The translations under genes and the position numbers were made by a program. The notes under the pieces are model-generated. The model had not been told where the DNA came from. It was given only the letters and a program-made list of their open reading frames with translations, and did not search any database. This document shows positions 57,265 through 64,000 of a stretch of 64,000 bases of DNA, one piece after another; the stretch's first letter is position 1, and every line of letters starts with the position of its first letter. Where the stretch lies: positions 112,738 through 176,737 of the forward strand of contig JBKBRF010000007.1 in assembly GCA_046292385.1 (NCBI GenBank), written 5' to 3'. Origin of the DNA: Armatimonadota bacterium. GTDB lineage: Bacteria > Armatimonadota > SYMT01.

Positions 57265-58113
57265 TTACTTGCGCCCGCGATTGCCGGAGCGCTGGGCCGG
57301 CTTGTCGAAGAGCAGCACGTACTCGTGCTTGAAGATGTAGAAGCCGCCGCGGAGGGCGCGGTACCGCCAGAGGTTGCCGGTGCGGCCCTTGCCCACCTCG
57401 TTGCCCTCGATGTTCTTCACCACGATGGAGCGGGTGCGGAATCCGGCCTCGTTCATCACTCGCATGCACTCGAAGCCGAGCGGGATCAGCTCGCCCGCGG
57501 AGTACTTGTCCCCGATCACCACCACCGCGAAGCGGCCGGGGCGGAGCAGGTTGTAGGCGCGGTCCGCCACCCGGCGGAAGCCGTCCAGGAACCCCTCGGT
57601 GCCGTCCGCGTTGGAGAGGTCCTCTTCGCGGTCGCTGAAGCGGATGATGTCGTGGTACGGCGGGTGGAGCACCGCGAGATCGACGTGCTCCCGCTCCCAG
57701 CCGTGCAGCACTTCCCGGACCCGCACCTCCGTCTCCGGGCTGCCGCTGTCGCCGCAGAGCACGGCGGCGCGGCTGCCGTCGTCGCCCAGCTTCGCGCGGA
57801 CGTGCTCCGCCAGCTCCGGCTTCAGCTCCACCCCGATGCAGCGCCGCCCCAGACGGAGCGCCTCCACCGCGCTGGTGCCGGAGCCGAGGAAGAGATCGAG
57901 CACCACGTCGTCCTCCCGCGTGAAGCGGGTGAACGCCTGGGTGGCGATCTGCGGCACGAAGTTGCCGTGGTACTCCAGCGCGTGCCCGTTCCCACGCGCG
58001 CGGGAAGGGATGAGCCAGAGCGAGTCGGTCCAGACGTCGTCCAGCTCCTTCCAGCGGGTGAGGTCGAGGTCGTTGTAGGGAACGGTGGGGGCGAGCGGCT
58101 TACGGGGTTTCAC
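57265..58113 (-). CDS. Orphan amino-methyltransferase (N4/N6 DNA MTase or Trm11-like)
   Basis: YHGNFVPQI, LDLFLGSGT, GVEL, HPPY. Confidence 0.85.
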   Translation of the reverse strand: MKPRKPLAPTVPYNDLDLTRWKELDDVWTDSLWLIPSRARGNGHALEYHGNFVPQIATQAFTRFTREDDVVLDLFLGSGTSAVEALRLGRRCIGVELKPELAEHVRAKLGDDGSRAAVLCGDSGSPETEVRVREVLHGWEREHVDLAVLHPPYHDIIRFSDREEDLSNADGTEGFLDGFRRVADRAYNLLRPGRFAVVVIGDKYSAGELIPLGFECMRVMNEAGFRTRSIVVKNIEGNEVGKGRTGNLWRYRALRGGFYIFKHEYVLLFDKPAQRSGNRGRK

Positions 58114-58118
58114 GATTG

Positions 58119-58206
58119 TAGGGATGAGGGCGGAAGGATGAGGGATGATGGCGAGCCCTCCGGGTCCGAGCGCTCTTACCCCTACCCGTAATCTTACTCC
58201 GACTCG
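58119..58206. repeat. GGATGAG heptamer and hexamer tandem repeats
   Basis: agggatgagggcggaaggatgagggatgatg then ctcttacccctacccgtaatcttactccgactcg; same order as at 12937. Confidence 0.7.
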
Positions 58207-58302
58207 AAGACACTTCAGGACCGCGTCTGTTCCCGGCGAGAGATGGCCGCTCCGGTTGAGGGTCTTTCATCTCTCTTCTTCCATCTCCAGCCTTGTGTCA
58301 GG

Positions 58303-58331
58303 TTGACGCGGGACCAATCCTGGGCTAACAT
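58303..58331 (+). promoter_or_regulatory. sigma70-like promoter of the arg operon
   Basis: TTGACG (58303-08), 17-bp spacer, TAACAT (58326-31). Confidence 0.7.
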
Positions 58332-58340
58332 TTCCGTGCT

Positions 58341-58436
58341 ATGCAGCCTGTGGTGCGGACAATCGGGTCTCGGCCGGAAGAGCGTCGTCGCCGTCGTACG
58401 TACGATCACGCGTCCGTTCGGCCGGTGCTACCGTAG
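58341..58436 (+). CDS. Arg-rich leader peptide (31 aa) of the arg operon
   Basis: MQPVVRTIGSRPEERRRRRTYDHASVRPVLP*; CGT CGT CGC CGT CGT at 58383-58397. Confidence 0.78.
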   Translation: MQPVVRTIGSRPEERRRRRTYDHASVRPVLP

Positions 58437-58464
58437 CATTCCCCCAGCAGGTTCGGTTTTCGGC

Positions 58465-58497
58465 AAGACGGAGCAGGTGCTCCGTCTTTTTTGTTTT
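58465..58497 (+). terminator. Attenuator terminator upstream of argD
   Basis: AAGACGGAGC-AGGT-GCTCCGTCTT followed by TTTTGTTTT. Confidence 0.88.
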
Positions 58498-58537
58498 CCG
58501 GTAACGGCAGCGGTGCCGTTTCGGAAGGAGAGCGTCC

Positions 58538-59740
58538 ATGAGCAGCGTCAGCGACTGGTCCCACGAGCAGGTCCTCCAGGCCTATGGCGACTACGTGCAG
58601 CACACGTACGGCCGCACGCCGATCGTCTTCGTGCGCGGCGAAGGCGCTCGCCTGTGGGACGCGCGGGGCAACGAGTATCTCGACTGGGTCTCCGGCGGGC
58701 GCGCCGGCAGCGCGCTGGGGCACTGCCACCCGGATGTGACCGCCGCGCTGGAGCAGCAGCTCCGCACCCTCACCTACGTCTCCAACGACTTCCACCACCC
58801 GTGGGGCGCGCGGCTGGGGCAGCTCCTGGCGGAGCGGTCCGGCGGCCGGAAGTCGTTTTTCTGCAACTCCGGCGCGGAGGCGTCCGAGACGGCGCTGAAG
58901 CTGGCGCGGAAGTGGGGCAAGGGGAAGCGCGGCGGGGAGTGCGTGGAGGTGATCACGTTCCAGCGGTCGTTCCACGGCCGCACCTACGGCGCGCTCTCCG
59001 CTACCGCGCAGACGAAGTTCCACCAGGGCTTCGAGCCGATCGTCCCCGGCTTCACCTACCTGCCGTGGGAAGACCTGGGCGCGTTGGAAGCGGCGGTCGG
59101 ACCGCAGACCTGCGCCGTGTTCCTGGAGCCGGTACAGGGAGAGAGCGGCACCTATCCCGCCAGCACGGGGTTCATGCAGGGGATCGAGAAGCTCTGCCGG
59201 GAGCGGGAGGTGCTGTTCATGGTCGATGAGGTGCAGACCGGCTTCGGCCGCACCGGCCGGTTCTGGGCGTACGAGCACTTCGGAGTCGATCCGGACGTCG
59301 TGACGGCCGCCAAGGCGGTCGGCGGCGGCCTCGCGCTCGGCGCCTGCCTGGCAAAGCCGGAGGCATGCGCGCTGGTGCCGGGCGATCACGGCTGCACCTT
59401 CGGCGGCAACCCGCTCGCCACGGCGGCCGGCACCGCGGCAATCGAGGCGCTCGACCGCCACGGCTACGTGGAGAACGCCGCCGCCCAGGGCGAGTACCTG
59501 CTGGGCCGGCTCCGGGAGCTGGGACGCGAGCACCCGCAGGTCAAGGAAGCGCGCGGCCTGGGGCTGATGCTGGCGCTGGAATTCCAGCCGGGCCAGGGGA
59601 AAGGCGTCCTCGGCCGCTGCCTGGAGGCCGGGCTGGTGGTCCACGGCGTCGGCGACGACATCCTGCGGATCCTGCCGCCGGTCATCCTGACTCGAGAAGA
59701 GGCAGACGCGGGGCTTGGTATTCTGGAGAAAGCTCTTTAA
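58538..59740 (+). CDS. argD: Acetylornithine aminotransferase
   Basis: CNSGAEA, SFHGRT, EPVQGE, DEVQTGFGRTG, AKAVGGG, HGCTFGGNP; arg operon context. Confidence 0.92.
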   Translation: MSSVSDWSHEQVLQAYGDYVQHTYGRTPIVFVRGEGARLWDARGNEYLDWVSGGRAGSALGHCHPDVTAALEQQLRTLTYVSNDFHHPWGARLGQLLAERSGGRKSFFCNSGAEASETALKLARKWGKGKRGGECVEVITFQRSFHGRTYGALSATAQTKFHQGFEPIVPGFTYLPWEDLGALEAAVGPQTCAVFLEPVQGESGTYPASTGFMQGIEKLCREREVLFMVDEVQTGFGRTGRFWAYEHFGVDPDVVTAAKAVGGGLALGACLAKPEACALVPGDHGCTFGGNPLATAAGTAAIEALDRHGYVENAAAQGEYLLGRLRELGREHPQVKEARGLGLMLALEFQPGQGKGVLGRCLEAGLVVHGVGDDILRILPPVILTREEADAGLGILEKAL

Positions 59741-59789: not shown

Positions 59790-59841
59790 CGCGGCCTCAC
59801 CCCCGGCCCCTCTCCTGAGAGGGGCCGGGGGTGAGGCCGCG
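59790..59841. repeat. Perfect 25-bp inverted repeat (REP-like CCTCACCCCCGGCCCCTCTC type)
   Basis: CGCGGCCTCACCCCCGGCCCCTCTC-CT-GAGAGGGGCCGGGGGTGAGGCCGCG. Confidence 0.9.
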
Positions 59842-59869
59842 GGGAGAGCGACGAGTACGGAGATTTTGC

Positions 59870-60982
59870 ATGCAAACTGGTGAACCGAACGCGGGGCGGA
59901 GCGCCGCCTCTCCGGATGATGCGCTGAAGGCGCTGTGGGACCTGCCGTACTCGGAGCTGCGGCGGCTGGCGGAGTACGCGCGGAGCGGCCGCAACCCGGC
60001 GGGCGCGACGAACGCCGCGATGGTGGCGGTCGACCTGGCCCGCCAGAAGTGCGCCGGGCTGCGGCACCTGCGGGGGGTGGAGGATCTCTCCCGGGACCAG
60101 GCGTGGGCGCTGCTCTCCCTGGCGCGCGTGCTGAAGGAGACCGCCGCGTTCAACCGGACGGCGCACCGCGACATCCTGCCCGGCCGCACGCTGGCGATGG
60201 TCTTCGAGAAGCCGTCGCTGCGCACCCGCGTCTCGTTCGAGACCGGCATGTTCCAGATGGGCGGTCACGCCATCTACCTGGGGCCGAGCGACATCTCCCT
60301 CGGAAAGCGGGAGACGGTGGCCGACGTGGCGCACAACCTGGAGCGGATGGTCGACGGCGTGATGGCCCGCGTCTTCGCGCACGCCACGGTGCAGGAGCTG
60401 GCCGCCAACTCCCGGGTGCCGGTGATCAACGGCCTCTGCGACCGGGAGCACCCGTGCCAGGCGCTGGCCGACCTGCTCACCGTCTGGGAGCAGCGCGGCG
60501 ACATCGAGGGGCGGAAGATCGCCTACGTGGGGGATGGCAACAACGTCGCCCACTCGCTGCTGCTCCTCGGCGCCAAGCTGGGCGCGCACGTGGCGGTCGC
60601 GACCCCGAAGGGGTACGAGCCGGACGCGGGGATCGTCTCCGCGGCGCAGGCGGCGGCGCGCGAATCCGGCAGCAGCGTGCAGGTGACCCACGACCCGCGC
60701 GAAGCATGCGCGGAGGCGGACGTGATCTACACCGACGTCTGGGCCAGCATGGGCCAGGAAAGCGAGGCCGCCGAGCGCGCGCAGGTCTTCGCGCCCTACC
60801 AGGTGAACGCCGCCCTCTTCGAAGCCGCCCGCCCGGACGCCGTCTTCCTCCACTGCCTCCCCGCCCACCGCGGAGAGGAGGTCGCCGGCGAGGTGATGGA
60901 CGGCCCGCGCAGCGTCGTCTTCGACCAGGCCGAGAACCGCCTCCACGCCCAGAAGGCGGTCCTGGCGGTGCTTCTGGGCTGA
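59870..60982 (+). CDS. argF: Ornithine carbamoyltransferase with a ~60-aa N-terminal extension
   Basis: FEKPSLRTRVSFE, HPCQ, GDGNN, DVWASMG, HCLP, QAENR. Confidence 0.93.
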   Translation: MQTGEPNAGRSAASPDDALKALWDLPYSELRRLAEYARSGRNPAGATNAAMVAVDLARQKCAGLRHLRGVEDLSRDQAWALLSLARVLKETAAFNRTAHRDILPGRTLAMVFEKPSLRTRVSFETGMFQMGGHAIYLGPSDISLGKRETVADVAHNLERMVDGVMARVFAHATVQELAANSRVPVINGLCDREHPCQALADLLTVWEQRGDIEGRKIAYVGDGNNVAHSLLLLGAKLGAHVAVATPKGYEPDAGIVSAAQAAARESGSSVQVTHDPREACAEADVIYTDVWASMGQESEAAERAQVFAPYQVNAALFEAARPDAVFLHCLPAHRGEEVAGEVMDGPRSVVFDQAENRLHAQKAVLAVLLG

Positions 60983-60994
60983 GCTCTCTTTTTC

Positions 60995-61514
60995 GACACA
61001 GAGGGACACAGATTGGACAGAGAGCCATAGATTGAAGCAGTGGGATCGAGCAAGCGCCGAGAAGACGGGCTGCATGCGGAGCTGACCCACAAGATAATCG
61101 GAGTGGCTCGACGGGTGTACGCGTCGCTGGGCTACGGGTTTCTGGAGAAGGTCTACGAGAACGCCATGGCCCTGGAGTTCGGTCTCGCTGGCATTCAGGT
61201 GGTGCAGAGCGCCCCAATCCAGGTGCGGTATCGCGGCGAGCTGATTGGCGTCTACGAGGCCGACTTGCTGGTGGAAGGGCGAGTGATCGTGGAGCTCAAA
61301 GCGGTGGAGCGGCTGATCGAGATCCACGAGGTCCAGCTCGTCAACTACCTCCGCGCCACTGAGATAGAAGTGGGACTGTTGATCAATTTCGGCCCCCGGT
61401 TCGACGTTCGTCGCAGGATCTTCACCAACGATCGGAAAAGCGGTGGCTCGTCCGGGATCCGCCCCTTGTGACAGGGATCTGTGGTTCTCTGTCTAATCTG
61501 CGTCCCTCTGTGTC
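60995..61514 (+). mobile_element. Putative element: GxxExxY gene inside 38-bp imperfect terminal inverted repeats
   Basis: 60995-61032 vs 61477-61514 match 34/38; 9-nt internal periodicity. Confidence 0.7.
61040..61471 (+). CDS. GxxExxY protein (PD-(D/E)XK nuclease-like)
   Basis: LGYGFLEKVYENAM, ADLLVEGRVIVELKA, QLVNYL..GLLINFG. Confidence 0.93.
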   Translation: MGSSKRREDGLHAELTHKIIGVARRVYASLGYGFLEKVYENAMALEFGLAGIQVVQSAPIQVRYRGELIGVYEADLLVEGRVIVELKAVERLIEIHEVQLVNYLRATEIEVGLLINFGPRFDVRRRIFTNDRKSGGSSGIRPL

Positions 61515-61531
61515 AGAAAACGAAAACCAAG

Positions 61532-62737
61532 ATGAAGAAGATCGTTCTCGCGTATAGCGGTGGGTTGGATACCAGCGTGATCCTCCCGTGGCTCAAGGAG
61601 CGCTACCCGGGCGTGCGGCTCGTGGCGTTCGCGGCGGAGCTGGGGCAGGGGGACGAGCTGAAGAACATCGAGGAGAAGGCCCGCAAGAGCGGGGCGGACG
61701 AGGTGGTGGTACGGGACCTCCGGCAGGAGTTCGCGGAGGAGTACTGCTTCCCGATGCTCCGCGCCCACGCGATCTACGAGGAAGACTACCTCCTCGGCAC
61801 CAGCATCGCGCGCCCGATCATCGCCCGGCACCAGGTGCTGGTGGCGCACGAGACCGGCGCCGACGCGGTGGCGCACGGGGCCACGAGCAAGGGGAACGAC
61901 CAGGTCCGCTTCGAGCTGACCTACATGGCGCTCGATCCGCGGCTGGAGATCGTGGCCCCGTGGAAGGACCCGACCTTCGAGCTGACCGACCGGGAGACCG
62001 CCATCGACTACGCCCGGGAGAAGGGCGTGCCGGTCGACCAGACCAAGGAGAAGATCTACAGCCGCGACCGCAACCTCTGGCACATCAGCCACGAAGGGGC
62101 GGACCTGGAGGATCCGGCGAATGAGCCGCAGGACCCCCTCTGGGTGATGTCGGTCCCGGTCTCCCAGGCGCCGGACCAGCCGGAGTACGTGGAGATCCGG
62201 TTCGAGCGCGGCAACCCGGTGGCGGTGGATGGGCAGGCGCTGCCCGGTCACGAGTTGATCGCCCGGCTCAACGAGCTCGGCGGCCGGCACGCGGTGGGGC
62301 AGACGCAGCTGGTGGAGAACCGGCTGGTCGGCATGAAGAGCCGCGGCGCCTACGAGACTCCCGGCGGCACCATCCTCTACGAGGCGCACAAGGCGCTGGA
62401 GCATCTCTGCCTGGAGCGGGACACCTACCACTACAAGCAGGTGGTGGCACAGCGCTACGCGGAGCTCACCTACTACGGCCAGTGGTTCCACCCGCTGCGG
62501 GACGCGCTGCAGGCCTTCGTGGACCACACCCAGCAGGTGGTGAACGGCACCGTCCGCGTGAAGCTCTTCAAGGGCCGCGCGACCACCGCCTCCGTCTCCA
62601 GCGACAGCAGCCTCTACGACCCGCAGCTCGCCAGCTTCGCCATGAGCGGCTACGACGTCACCGCGGCGCGCGGCTTCATCGACCTCTTCGGCCTCCCGAT
62701 GAAGGTCAACCGCCTCCAGCGCCAGCGGGAGGACTGA
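61532..62737 (+). CDS. argG: Argininosuccinate synthase
   Basis: MKKIVLAYSGGLDTS, KGNDQVRFE, ENRLVGMKSRGAYETPGG. Confidence 0.97.
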   Translation: MKKIVLAYSGGLDTSVILPWLKERYPGVRLVAFAAELGQGDELKNIEEKARKSGADEVVVRDLRQEFAEEYCFPMLRAHAIYEEDYLLGTSIARPIIARHQVLVAHETGADAVAHGATSKGNDQVRFELTYMALDPRLEIVAPWKDPTFELTDRETAIDYAREKGVPVDQTKEKIYSRDRNLWHISHEGADLEDPANEPQDPLWVMSVPVSQAPDQPEYVEIRFERGNPVAVDGQALPGHELIARLNELGGRHAVGQTQLVENRLVGMKSRGAYETPGGTILYEAHKALEHLCLERDTYHYKQVVAQRYAELTYYGQWFHPLRDALQAFVDHTQQVVNGTVRVKLFKGRATTASVSSDSSLYDPQLASFAMSGYDVTAARGFIDLFGLPMKVNRLQRQRED

Positions 62738-62754: not shown

Positions 62755-62938
62755 CACCGCAGAGAACGCGGAGCGCGCAGAGGGCTCTGGGGAAACGCGG
62801 TAGTTCAACGGGAGCGAGGGGTCCGCGAAGGCGGTCCCCCGTCCGGGGGATGAAACTTCGTGCCGTGGTTGCCGCGGTTTCAACCGCCCGGTAGCGCTCC
62901 TGAGTTCTCTTGGCGTCTCTTGGCGCTCTTGGCGGTTG
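62755..62938. repeat. Composite intergenic repeats (CGCAGAG 9-mer tract, REP-like GCGGTTTCAACCGC, CTTGGCG tract)
   Basis: caccgcagagaacgcggagcgcgcagag; gcggtttcaaccgc; tcttggcgtctcttggcgctcttggcgg. Confidence 0.7.
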
Positions 62939-62959
62939 AATAAAGGTTCGGAAAGCAAG

Positions 62960-64000
62960 ATGAAGCTCTGGGGTGGCCGGTTTGACAAGGAGCCGAACGC
63001 GGCGATTGCGGCGTTCACGCATTCGCTGCCGTTCGACCAGCGGATGGCGGAGCAGGACGTGCGCGGCTCGATTGCCCACTGCCGGATGCTGGGCCACACC
63101 GGCATCATCGCGGCGGAGGACGCGGCGGCGATCGAGGGCGGGCTGCGGGAGATCCTGGCGGAGCTGGAAGCGGGCGAGCGGCTGGAGGGGGCGGAGGACA
63201 TCCACTCGTGGGTGGAGAGCCGGCTGCGGGAGAAGCTCGGGCCGGTGGCGGGGAAGCTCCACACCGCGCGGAGCCGCAACGACCAGGTGGCGACCGATAC
63301 GCGCCTCTACCTGCGGGAGGCGGCGGAGAGCCTCTCCGCGCAGGTGGCGGAGCTTCAGCGAGCGCTCCTGGAGCACGCGCGGGAGCACACGGAGACGGTT
63401 CTGCCCGGCCTCACCCACATGCAGCACGCGCAGCCGGTGGTGCTGGCGCATCACCTGCTCGCCTACTTCTGGATGCTGCAGCGGGATCGGGAGCGGCTGG
63501 CGGACTGGCGGAAGCGCGCCAACGTGCTCCCGCTCGGCGCCGGCGCGCTGGCCGGCTCGCCGTATCCGGTCGACCGCGAGTTCGTGGCGCGGGAGCTCGG
63601 CTTCGACCGCGTGGGCGAGAACAGCATGGACAACGTCTCCGACCGCGACTTCGCGGTGGAGCTCGCCTCCGTGCTGGCCCTGGCGGCGGTGCACCTCTCC
63701 CGGCTGGCGGAGGAAGTGGTGCTCTGGAACACCCGGGAGCTCGGCTACATCGAGCTGGACGACAGCATCGCCACCGGCAGCTCGATCATGCCGCAGAAGA
63801 AGAACCCGGACGTGGCAGAGCTGGTGCGCGGCAAGAGCGGCCGGGTCTTCGGCAATCTCCAGAGTCTGCTCGTCACCATGAAGGGCCTGCCGCTCGCCTA
63901 CAACAGCGACATGCAGGAGGATAAGGAGCGGATCTTCGACAGTGTCGACACCGTCGGTGGCTGCCTGGGAGCGATGACCCTGCTCCTCCGCAACTGCCGC
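62960..64000 (+). CDS. argH: Argininosuccinate lyase (runs off the window)
   Basis: Manual translation MKLWGGRF..EDIH..KLHTARSRNDQ..GLTHMQHAQPV..TGSSIMPQKKNPD. Confidence 0.97.
   Translation, partial: MKLWGGRFDKEPNAAIAAFTHSLPFDQRMAEQDVRGSIAHCRMLGHTGIIAAEDAAAIEGGLREILAELEAGERLEGAEDIHSWVESRLREKLGPVAGKLHTARSRNDQVATDTRLYLREAAESLSAQVAELQRALLEHAREHTETVLPGLTHMQHAQPVVLAHHLLAYFWMLQRDRERLADWRKRANVLPLGAGALAGSPYPVDREFVARELGFDRVGENSMDNVSDRDFAVELASVLALAAVHLSRLAEEVVLWNTRELGYIELDDSIATGSSIMPQKKNPDVAELVRGKSGRVFGNLQSLLVTMKGLPLAYNSDMQEDKERIFDSVDTVGGCLGAMTLLLRNCR

Follow-up and report, generated by a model that had tools for sequence, protein, structure and literature searches.

Transcription attenuators that work through a leader peptide are classically known from enterobacteria, where trpL, hisL, leuL, thrL, pheL and ilvL are the standard examples, and classical attenuation has been tied to a short and fixed list of amino acids. 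In this study, we describe a candidate of this kind for arginine, an element that lies upstream of argD-argF-argG-argH in 64,000 nucleotides (nt) of DNA from an Armatimonadota bacterium (GTDB lineage Bacteria; Armatimonadota; SYMT01; NCBI GenBank assembly GCA_046292385.1, contig JBKBRF010000007.1, positions 112,738 to 176,737 of the forward strand). This whole stretch is called the window below, and it lies on the contig that we number C7 of a 7.04-Mb, 91-contig assembly, which is 98.45% complete. The argD element resembles the enterobacterial attenuators in its short open reading frame (ORF), where codons for the end product of the pathway stand in tandem, in the intrinsic terminator that precedes the first biosynthetic gene, and in a leader segment that is able to pair with the 5' arm of that terminator. 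The use of a rare cognate codon is likewise a feature of leuL. The element differs from these systems in its specificity for arginine, in a messenger RNA (mRNA) that is predicted to be leaderless or nearly so and has no Shine-Dalgarno sequence, and in the 1:2 protector hairpin, which is unsupported here; it also has no sequence or Rfam relation to them. To our knowledge, no gene regulation has been studied in the phylum of this host.

The textbook control of bacterial arg genes is repression at ARG boxes by ArgR, a hexameric DNA-binding repressor that senses free arginine. The outcome proposed for the argD element is alike, as the arg genes would be shut off when arginine is plentiful, but neither of the ArgR domains was found in the genome that carries it. 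In fungi, the arginine attenuator peptide (AAP), encoded by the upstream ORF of arg-2/CPA1, is a eukaryotic system in which the stalling depends on the peptide sequence and takes place at high free arginine. The AAP shares with the argD element an upstream ORF before an arginine-pathway gene and, as proposed here, a response to arginine, whereas it has no run of Arg codons, no terminator and no homology to our element.

Leaderless leader peptides have been described in Streptomyces lividans, among them leuL, trpL and ilvL (PMC8079986). As is predicted for argD, an ORF at the 5' end of the transcript is followed there by a hairpin and a U-stretch before the amino acid gene, while the Streptomyces leaders belong to another phylum, are shorter, with 12–29 amino acids, and respond to Leu, Trp, Ile/Val, Ala, Met or Thr, with none for Arg (PMC8079986). 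The polycysteine short ORFs of mycobacteria, the "Cys ribulon", are also leaderless sensory ORFs with a run of the cognate codon, and they stand before more than one operon of their pathway, much as Arg copies stand before argD and argJ in G002, a relative of our organism (10.1101/834739). Unlike the mycobacterial ORFs, the argD element has a canonical terminator as its conserved output. In Salmonella, pausing at the consecutive Arg codons of speF orf34 (SpeFL) alters the folding of the downstream mRNA according to arginine (PMC6386406). The upstream ORF with consecutive Arg codons and the proposed pausing of the ribosome are common to both, but orf34 has two Arg codons, precedes a polyamine gene and acts through Rho termination, access to the ribosome-binding site and RNase G (PMC6386406); unlike what is proposed for the argD element, it has no intrinsic terminator switch and controls no arginine-biosynthesis operon. 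No description of a leader-peptide attenuator of a bacterial arg operon was found in the literature searched, mainly the main texts of open-access papers, and none is mentioned in the accessible portions of PMC2965389, PMC8632094, PMC8079986 and PMC4833913.

Results

The leader element upstream of argD

We found that argD is preceded by an element (Table 1) that we interpret, with a probability of about 0.75, as a nearly leaderless ribosome-mediated transcription attenuator sensing charged arginyl-tRNA. The features of this element in the sequence, their conservation, the rarity of the codons and the complementarity of the RNA segments are direct observations. The promoter is the single sigma-70-like match in positions 57500–59500 (mean of 0.0 in 50 shuffles), and its -35 TTGAC and -10 TAnnnT are aligned in 6/6 relatives. 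The ATG at 58341 has no Shine-Dalgarno sequence and is located 9 nt past the -10 hexamer, because of which the ORF is predicted to be leaderless or to have a 5' untranslated region (UTR) of only 1–3 nt. The stem of the terminator (58465–58488) has 10 pairs, six of them G-C, with a 4-nt loop, and it is followed by TTTTGTTTT; the terminator ends 40 nt before argD. An initial annotation of this stretch had noted the promoter, the near-leaderless ATG without a Shine-Dalgarno sequence, the 31-codon ORF, the run of five Arg codons and the terminator, and all of these were recovered at the same positions.

Table 1. Positions of the leader element, its RNA segments, the downstream genes and related features. 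Plain numbers refer to the window; L-numbers are loci extracted from the named contigs.
Feature	Position	Strand	Basis or remark
Promoter TTGACG-17-TAACAT	58303..58331	+	Sigma-70-like consensus scan
Leader ORF, 31 codons + TAG	58341..58436	+	Translates to MQPVVRTIGSRPEERRRRRTYDHASVRPVLP, containing EERRRRR
Segment 1 of the initial annotation	58369..58378	+	Pairs with 58417-58425 in the minimum free energy (MFE) fold
Arg block CGT CGT CGC CGT CGT, proposed sensing codons	58383..58397	+	Read from sequence
Box 2, proposed 5' strand of the antiterminator	58409..58426	+	Best duplex with terminator arm
Segment 3, flank and terminator 5' arm	58459..58474	+	Can pair with box 2 or with terminator 3' arm
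Intrinsic terminator	58465..58497	+	Arms 58465-58474 and 58479-58488, loop 58475-58478, U-tract
argD, acetylornithine aminotransferase, first gene under the proposed control	58538..59740	+	TIGR00707, 425.9 bits, above cut-off
argF-like (ornithine) carbamoyltransferase	59831..60982	+	Pfam OTCace_N and OTCace
argG, argininosuccinate synthase	61481..62737	+	NF001770, 566.8 bits
argH, argininosuccinate lyase, runs off the window	62936..64000	+	TIGR00838, 498.2 bits
argJ copy of Arg leader and terminator	L156:1290-1468 (G002, contig C538)		Leader MEFRVRQQRTARVGVRRRGNQRSAALARPA, CGT CGT CGT
Candidate trp attenuator before trpE	L157:965-1180 (own contig C26)		Promoter TTGACG-17-TATAGT at L157:965-993
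GGATGAG/GGATGAA-type repeats	58118-58150; L157:1200-1230; own contig C3 ~265735-265760		

On its upstream side, the element borders a DNA methylase-like gene of the opposite strand, which the terminator therefore does not serve. In the window, no other promoter was detected between the element and argD by the consensus scan. The argD start codon at 58538 is preceded by AAGGAG, and no leader structure takes up this Shine-Dalgarno sequence in the MFE fold. An imperfect hairpin of 11 pairs (58498–58524, + strand) separates the terminator from the Shine-Dalgarno sequence in this fold; the hairpin is not conserved in the relatives and is weakened by a strain variant, TT>CC at 58520–58521. The search of positions 57800–58900 against Rfam with E values up to 10 gave three matches, all with E >3 and far below the gathering score, and none of the three belongs to a leader, T-box or riboswitch family. 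The leader peptide of 31 amino acids did not fall into any family in a Pfam scan.

Conservation and geometry

The class was sampled with 8 species genomes and 3 close metagenome contigs with readable upstream DNA. An ArgD orthologue (E at most 1e-90) is present in 6/8 of these genomes, and the other two are 69% and 90% complete. Five class genomes have readable DNA upstream of argD and belong to two families, with our genome, G002, G005 and G001 in one and G007 (locus L006) in the other; the promoter, the in-frame Arg block and the hairpin–U-tract terminator are present in all five. The contig of G006 breaks off just before the terminator, which is the only part visible there. The metagenome scan gave 37 ArgD-related loci, of which four had at least 67% identity and three of these had upstream DNA; two of the three, L070 and L072, carry the element. 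Taken together, it is found in 7/8 close relatives with readable upstream DNA of argD. The initial annotation had made its reading depend on conservation of the Arg run, and the run is retained in 5/5 class genomes and 2/3 metagenomic relatives.

A pattern search with the terminator motif in the 8 class genomes gave one further true instance, upstream of argJ in G002, which shows that the module stands before two different arginine transcription units. The terminator of this copy is almost identical to that of the argD copy of the same genome, the peptide is different, and argJ follows the terminator 22 nt later. It looks like a recent duplication of the module. This copy has no -35 match, and a TG was read by eye one base before its -10. 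In the genome of the window, the terminator motif is single-copy. An extra match in G001 was rejected as not being a true instance, since it lies inside coding-like sequence and has no leader.

The geometry of the eight instances was compiled partly by hand from the printed sequences. The Arg block consists of 3–6 codons, sometimes with one other residue inside, and is in frame in 8/8. The start codon is located 6–9 nt past the predicted -10 hexamer in 7/8 instances, and 12–15 codons precede the Arg block. The block is followed by 11–14 codons in 7/8 (five in G007), and the distance from the stop codon to the terminator is 28–37 nt in 7/8 (79 nt in G007), while the spacer between the terminator and the gene ranges from 22 to ~130 nt. 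The mean column identity of the aligned leaders is 64%, and the sequence diverges freely except in the two promoter hexamers (-35 and -10), the Arg block, box 2 and the terminator.

In the other classes of the phylum, an Arg-run ORF with a terminator was found upstream of argD in 0/24 loci (L007–L030) and upstream of argG in 0/26 loci (L111–L136). Two apparent KRRR ORFs among the argG loci were rejected, as they are off-frame inside argF. In L009 (G026, another family), a promoter-like site and a hairpin–U-tract are located between argB and argD, ~60–330 nt upstream of argD, with a short ORF, read by eye as MSERMDMKKPICMTTEYGDSA, that has no Arg run.

Pairing of the leader with the terminator

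The terminator was the only consensus structure given by RNAalifold for six aligned leaders (6/6, with 2 compensatory pairs), and the predicted terminator hairpins score -16.5 to -22.1 kcal/mol. The whole leader of the window folds marginally better than its shuffles (z -1.76). The leader downstream of the Arg block was evaluated for pairing with the terminator flank plus 5' arm by a duplex search against 500 dinucleotide shuffles. In the window, the best duplex joins 58409–58426 to 58459–58474 with -19.2 kcal/mol, compared with -12.7 +/- 2.1 for the shuffles (z -3.05), and 0.8% of the 500 shuffles match this score. The 2:3 pairing of the initial annotation was thereby recovered independently. 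Its 5' strand, box 2, is located inside the distal leader ORF, beginning 11 nt past the Arg block and ending 7 nt before the stop codon, and the box position is alike in our genome, L072, L070 and L003 (11–13 nt past the block, 7–12 nt before the stop). When the antiterminator was placed on the six-sequence alignment, 80.6% of the cells were paired, compared with 36–44% when the 3' partners were slid by 1–3 columns.

A ribosome stalled at the Arg block was represented by masking all of the RNA up to 10 nt beyond the block and cutting it at the terminator loop. In these folds, the 5' arm of the terminator was paired to the distal leader in 8/8 instances with a mean probability of 0.60–0.79, and the structures had -16 to -36 kcal/mol. 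When the mask was moved to 13 nt past the stop codon, only structures of -5 to -14 kcal/mol were left in 7/8, the exception being G007.

Arg codons and strain variants

Across 2,018 long ORFs of the genome with high GC content at third positions, 4,347 of 104,886 Arg codons (4.1%) are CGT, which agrees with the earlier impression that this codon is uncommon here, and CGT makes up 4/5 of the Arg codons in the leader of the window. In seven instances (our family and two metagenome contigs), 23/31 Arg-block codons are CGT by a count made by eye. The run of G007 (L006) reads CGC CGC CGA CGG CGA CGC, and this difference in codons indicates that the amino acid, not a DNA word, is conserved across the families.

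Strain variants were read from near-identical sequence in the contigs of three DNA runs, at a depth of 2–5.4. Inside the ORF, 7 sites are changed and the frame is kept; five of them are synonymous or stop-to-stop changes of third positions, namely CGG>CGA, TCT>TCC, GTG>GTT, TAG>TAA and, within the Arg block, CGT>CGC. The other two sites are neighbours and change His to Cys, the residue that L070 carries there. No variant falls into box 2 or the terminator stem, where the cover is partial. An RNA run (X19) had no assembled contig on 58250–58650, which says nothing for or against transcription.

In this genome of 70% GC, there are 169 runs of at least four Arg codons with at least three CGT when all six frames are taken together. 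Searches of the whole genome for runs of Arg codons with a hairpin behind them, or for CGT-rich runs, were rejected as too noisy in such DNA. When 201 strict terminator-like sites were scanned for short ORFs with amino acid runs upstream of them, and strict promoter-plus-start matches were scanned as well, only the argD leader stood out; these strict scans missed the trp leader described below, which was found by a direct look at trpE. Aragorn predicted one tRNA-Arg(ACG), three tRNA-Arg(GCG) (own contigs C11, C15 and C45) and several tRNA-Arg of 84–92 nt; the latter, together with the GCG calls, are unusual and possibly false in GC-rich DNA.

ArgR and a candidate trp attenuator

The two ArgR domains, PF01316 and PF02863, gave no match in our 98.45%-complete genome, while control genomes scored; ARG boxes were not searched for. 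The question of argR raised by the initial annotation is answered to this extent. The C-terminal domain PF02863 was found in 0/8 class genomes and in 0/61 sampled genomes of the phylum, which suggests that the lack of ArgR is phylum-wide in this sample and not peculiar to the genomes that bear the leader.

The same genome harbors a candidate trp attenuator before trpE. Its leader ORF, MRVEQLQPQNGWWWRQN (WWW), is located at L157:1012–1065 with an 18-nt 5' UTR, and it is followed by two hairpins, each with a U-rich tract; the fold of the region has a z of -4.50 against shuffles, and trpE starts ~350 nt beyond. With this candidate in the genome, it is plausible that the organism uses classical attenuation. 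The upstream regions of leuA and hisG showed no leader with a promoter and a terminator.

Other arginine genes and intergenic repeats

The own argJ (L069:1395–1475, contig C3) has a strong promoter with a GC-rich hairpin and a U-rich tract within ~10 nt and no Arg-run ORF; the only frame in this hairpin region is a 5-codon TTG frame, of which the last two codons are Arg. This promoter-proximal arrangement occurs at argJ in four or five class genomes (our own, L150, L151, L155 and perhaps L154), with promoters of the form TTGACC-17-TATACT or TATAAT. The hairpin might stabilise the 5' end, or the arrangement might be an attenuator of a second kind.

Purine-rich heptamer-like repeats (GGATGAG/GGATGAA) are present in the intergenic DNA by gene ends in several places of the genome (Table 1), and other short tandem units (TAGGGTT-like and GGGACAGA-like) flank genes elsewhere in it.

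Discussion

In this study, we found that the arginyl-tRNA-sensing attenuator suggested by the initial annotation is supported by the conserved Arg block and terminator, by the argJ copy, by ArgR not being found, and by the pairing under the mask in 8/8 instances. From the arrangement of these features, we infer the start of transcription, the translation of the ORF, the stalling and the switch as follows. Transcription would start a few bases before the ATG at 58341, and a ribosome would load directly on the leaderless or nearly leaderless 5' end and trail the RNA polymerase. When Arg-tRNA is plentiful, the ribosome would pass the five Arg codons and box 2 and reach the stop codon at 58434; with box 2 covered or unwound, the 58465–58488 hairpin and the U-tract would form, and transcription would terminate before argD. 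When Arg-tRNA is scarce, the ribosome would stall on the rare CGT codons at 58383–58397 and leave box 2, 11 nt downstream, free. The free box 2 would then capture 58459–58474 once this segment has been made, no terminator would form, and argD-argF-argG-argH would be transcribed.

Several observations weigh against this attenuator reading. In L073, whose ArgD is 67% identical, a promoter TTGACG-17-TAGCAT lies directly before argD (480–612) with no leader ORF and no clear terminator, so that not every close relative has the attenuator. In our own genome, argC and argJ-argB (contig C3) have no Arg leader, and the element precedes argDFGH only. In G007, the start codon is 72 nt from the promoter, and its box (L006) lies beyond the stop codon, so that a terminating ribosome would not mask it. 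The strength of the duplex is clear only in the window and individually unremarkable in 6/7 instances tested (z of -1.38, -1.21, -1.41, -1.48, -0.58 and +0.54 in the six relatives). Covariation of the antiterminator was not found, as column shuffles of the alignment gave 79.1% paired cells and 144/500 of them reached or exceeded the observed value; a double change occurs in 1 pair only, and the pairing is carried by sequence conservation. The strain variants come from contigs of low depth (2–5.4), and single calls may be errors. The folding results are divided on the claim that a ribosome on the Arg run would leave the leader free to displace the terminator: with the RNA cut at the loop, the arm pairs with the distal leader in 8/8, and in full-length equilibrium folds with the Arg block masked, the terminator persists in 5/5. 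Full-length masked folds are uninformative for a kinetic switch. With the 5' 40 nt left free in the window, box 2 pairs with the free 5' end instead. The 1:2 pairing of the initial annotation is not supported, as it is in the MFE fold but at chance level (z -0.08 in the window); pairing of the proximal leader with box 2 was present in 7/7 leaders tested and in none of them above dinucleotide shuffles (z -0.56 to +0.64).

Other explanations have to be weighed against the same evidence. A protein or another factor might bind the conserved hairpin sequence (AAGACGGRGC...) and read a regulated or leaky terminator, the Arg run not being the sensor. The sequence of the terminator stem is unusually conserved across two families, the antiterminator has no covariation and the 1:2 pairing is at chance level, all of which would be in line with such a factor, and Naville and Gautheret argue alike for the rimP leader (PMC2965389). 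However, the shared pairing of one arm with box 2 would also produce conservation of the stem, and a block that is in frame with a promoter-proximal start in 8/8 instances, that uses a codon of 4.1%, that keeps constant distances to start, stop and terminator, and that is retained as amino acid in L006 despite a different nucleotide string speaks against a passive Arg run; we consider this explanation unlikely, although it is the least improbable of the alternatives. An arrest peptide, in which the nascent polybasic chain would sense free arginine or ornithine in the exit tunnel and stall at or near the stop codon over box 2, favouring termination at high arginine, seems to us a little less probable again; the fungal AAP and enterobacterial SpeFL/orf34 would be its models. 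Outside the Arg block, L002, L005, L006 and L156 have unrelated peptides, and His>Cys is tolerated between strains. The partly conserved residues, E-E/D before the block and P-I-x-A-S after it (L070, L072 and L003), would speak for a peptide sensor, but the codons of P-I-x-A-S coincide with box 2, and RNA pairing thus explains their conservation. With a ribosome at the stop codon, the structures that remain are weak and the terminator would form, as this explanation needs, and Arg-containing sensor upstream ORFs exist (PMC6386406); the preference for a rare codon fits the sensing of tRNA better than that of a peptide.

Pausing in the ORF might also sense arginine while its output is the stability of the mRNA or the translation of argD, with the hairpin serving mainly as the 3' end or stabiliser of a short RNA. 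The canonical form of the terminator, with 6 G-C pairs and a U-tract in every instance, the variable spacer between terminator and gene, and the Shine-Dalgarno sequence of argD that stays free in the MFE fold make this quite improbable, even though short-ORF attenuators of such a kind are documented, some of them leaderless (10.1101/834739; PMC6386406). The least probable explanation, which we regard as very improbable, is an independent small gene or small RNA that has its own terminator and lies beside the arg genes with no regulation. CGN-rich runs are common in a genome of 70% GC, as the 169 runs show, and the Arg run might be a by-product of this. Against this, every instance lies immediately before an arginine-biosynthesis gene and in its orientation, argD and argJ are both preceded by one, the terminator motif occurs once in our genome, the peptide has no family and is not conserved beyond the Arg block, and no other promoter was detected between the element and argD in the window.

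The attenuator reading can be put in a wider form, which we hold to be only slightly more probable than its opposite: in a phylum in which ArgR was not detected, one class would sense arginine by the rate of translation of a leaderless, rare-codon, poly-Arg mini-gene that can be copied from argD to argJ, an "arginine ribulon".

Conclusions

The element is real and conserved, and it would represent a textbook mechanism in a leaderless form and with a new amino acid specificity. If the attenuator reading is true in its wider form, arginine would belong with Trp, His, Leu, Thr, Phe and Ile/Val among the amino acids under classical attenuation, and this control of arg genes would have escaped notice through the reliance of the model organisms on ArgR. 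The attenuator reading would also mean that the supply of arginine can be read from the charging of tRNA in a lineage in which ArgR was not detected. The element adds a class of unannotated small ORFs for genome annotation, and with ~160 nt it is a compact candidate for an arginine-responsive switch. Its predicted leaderless start offers a natural case for the coupling of a 70S-loaded ribosome to RNA polymerase, and the whole provides an entry point to gene regulation in a phylum that has hardly been studied.

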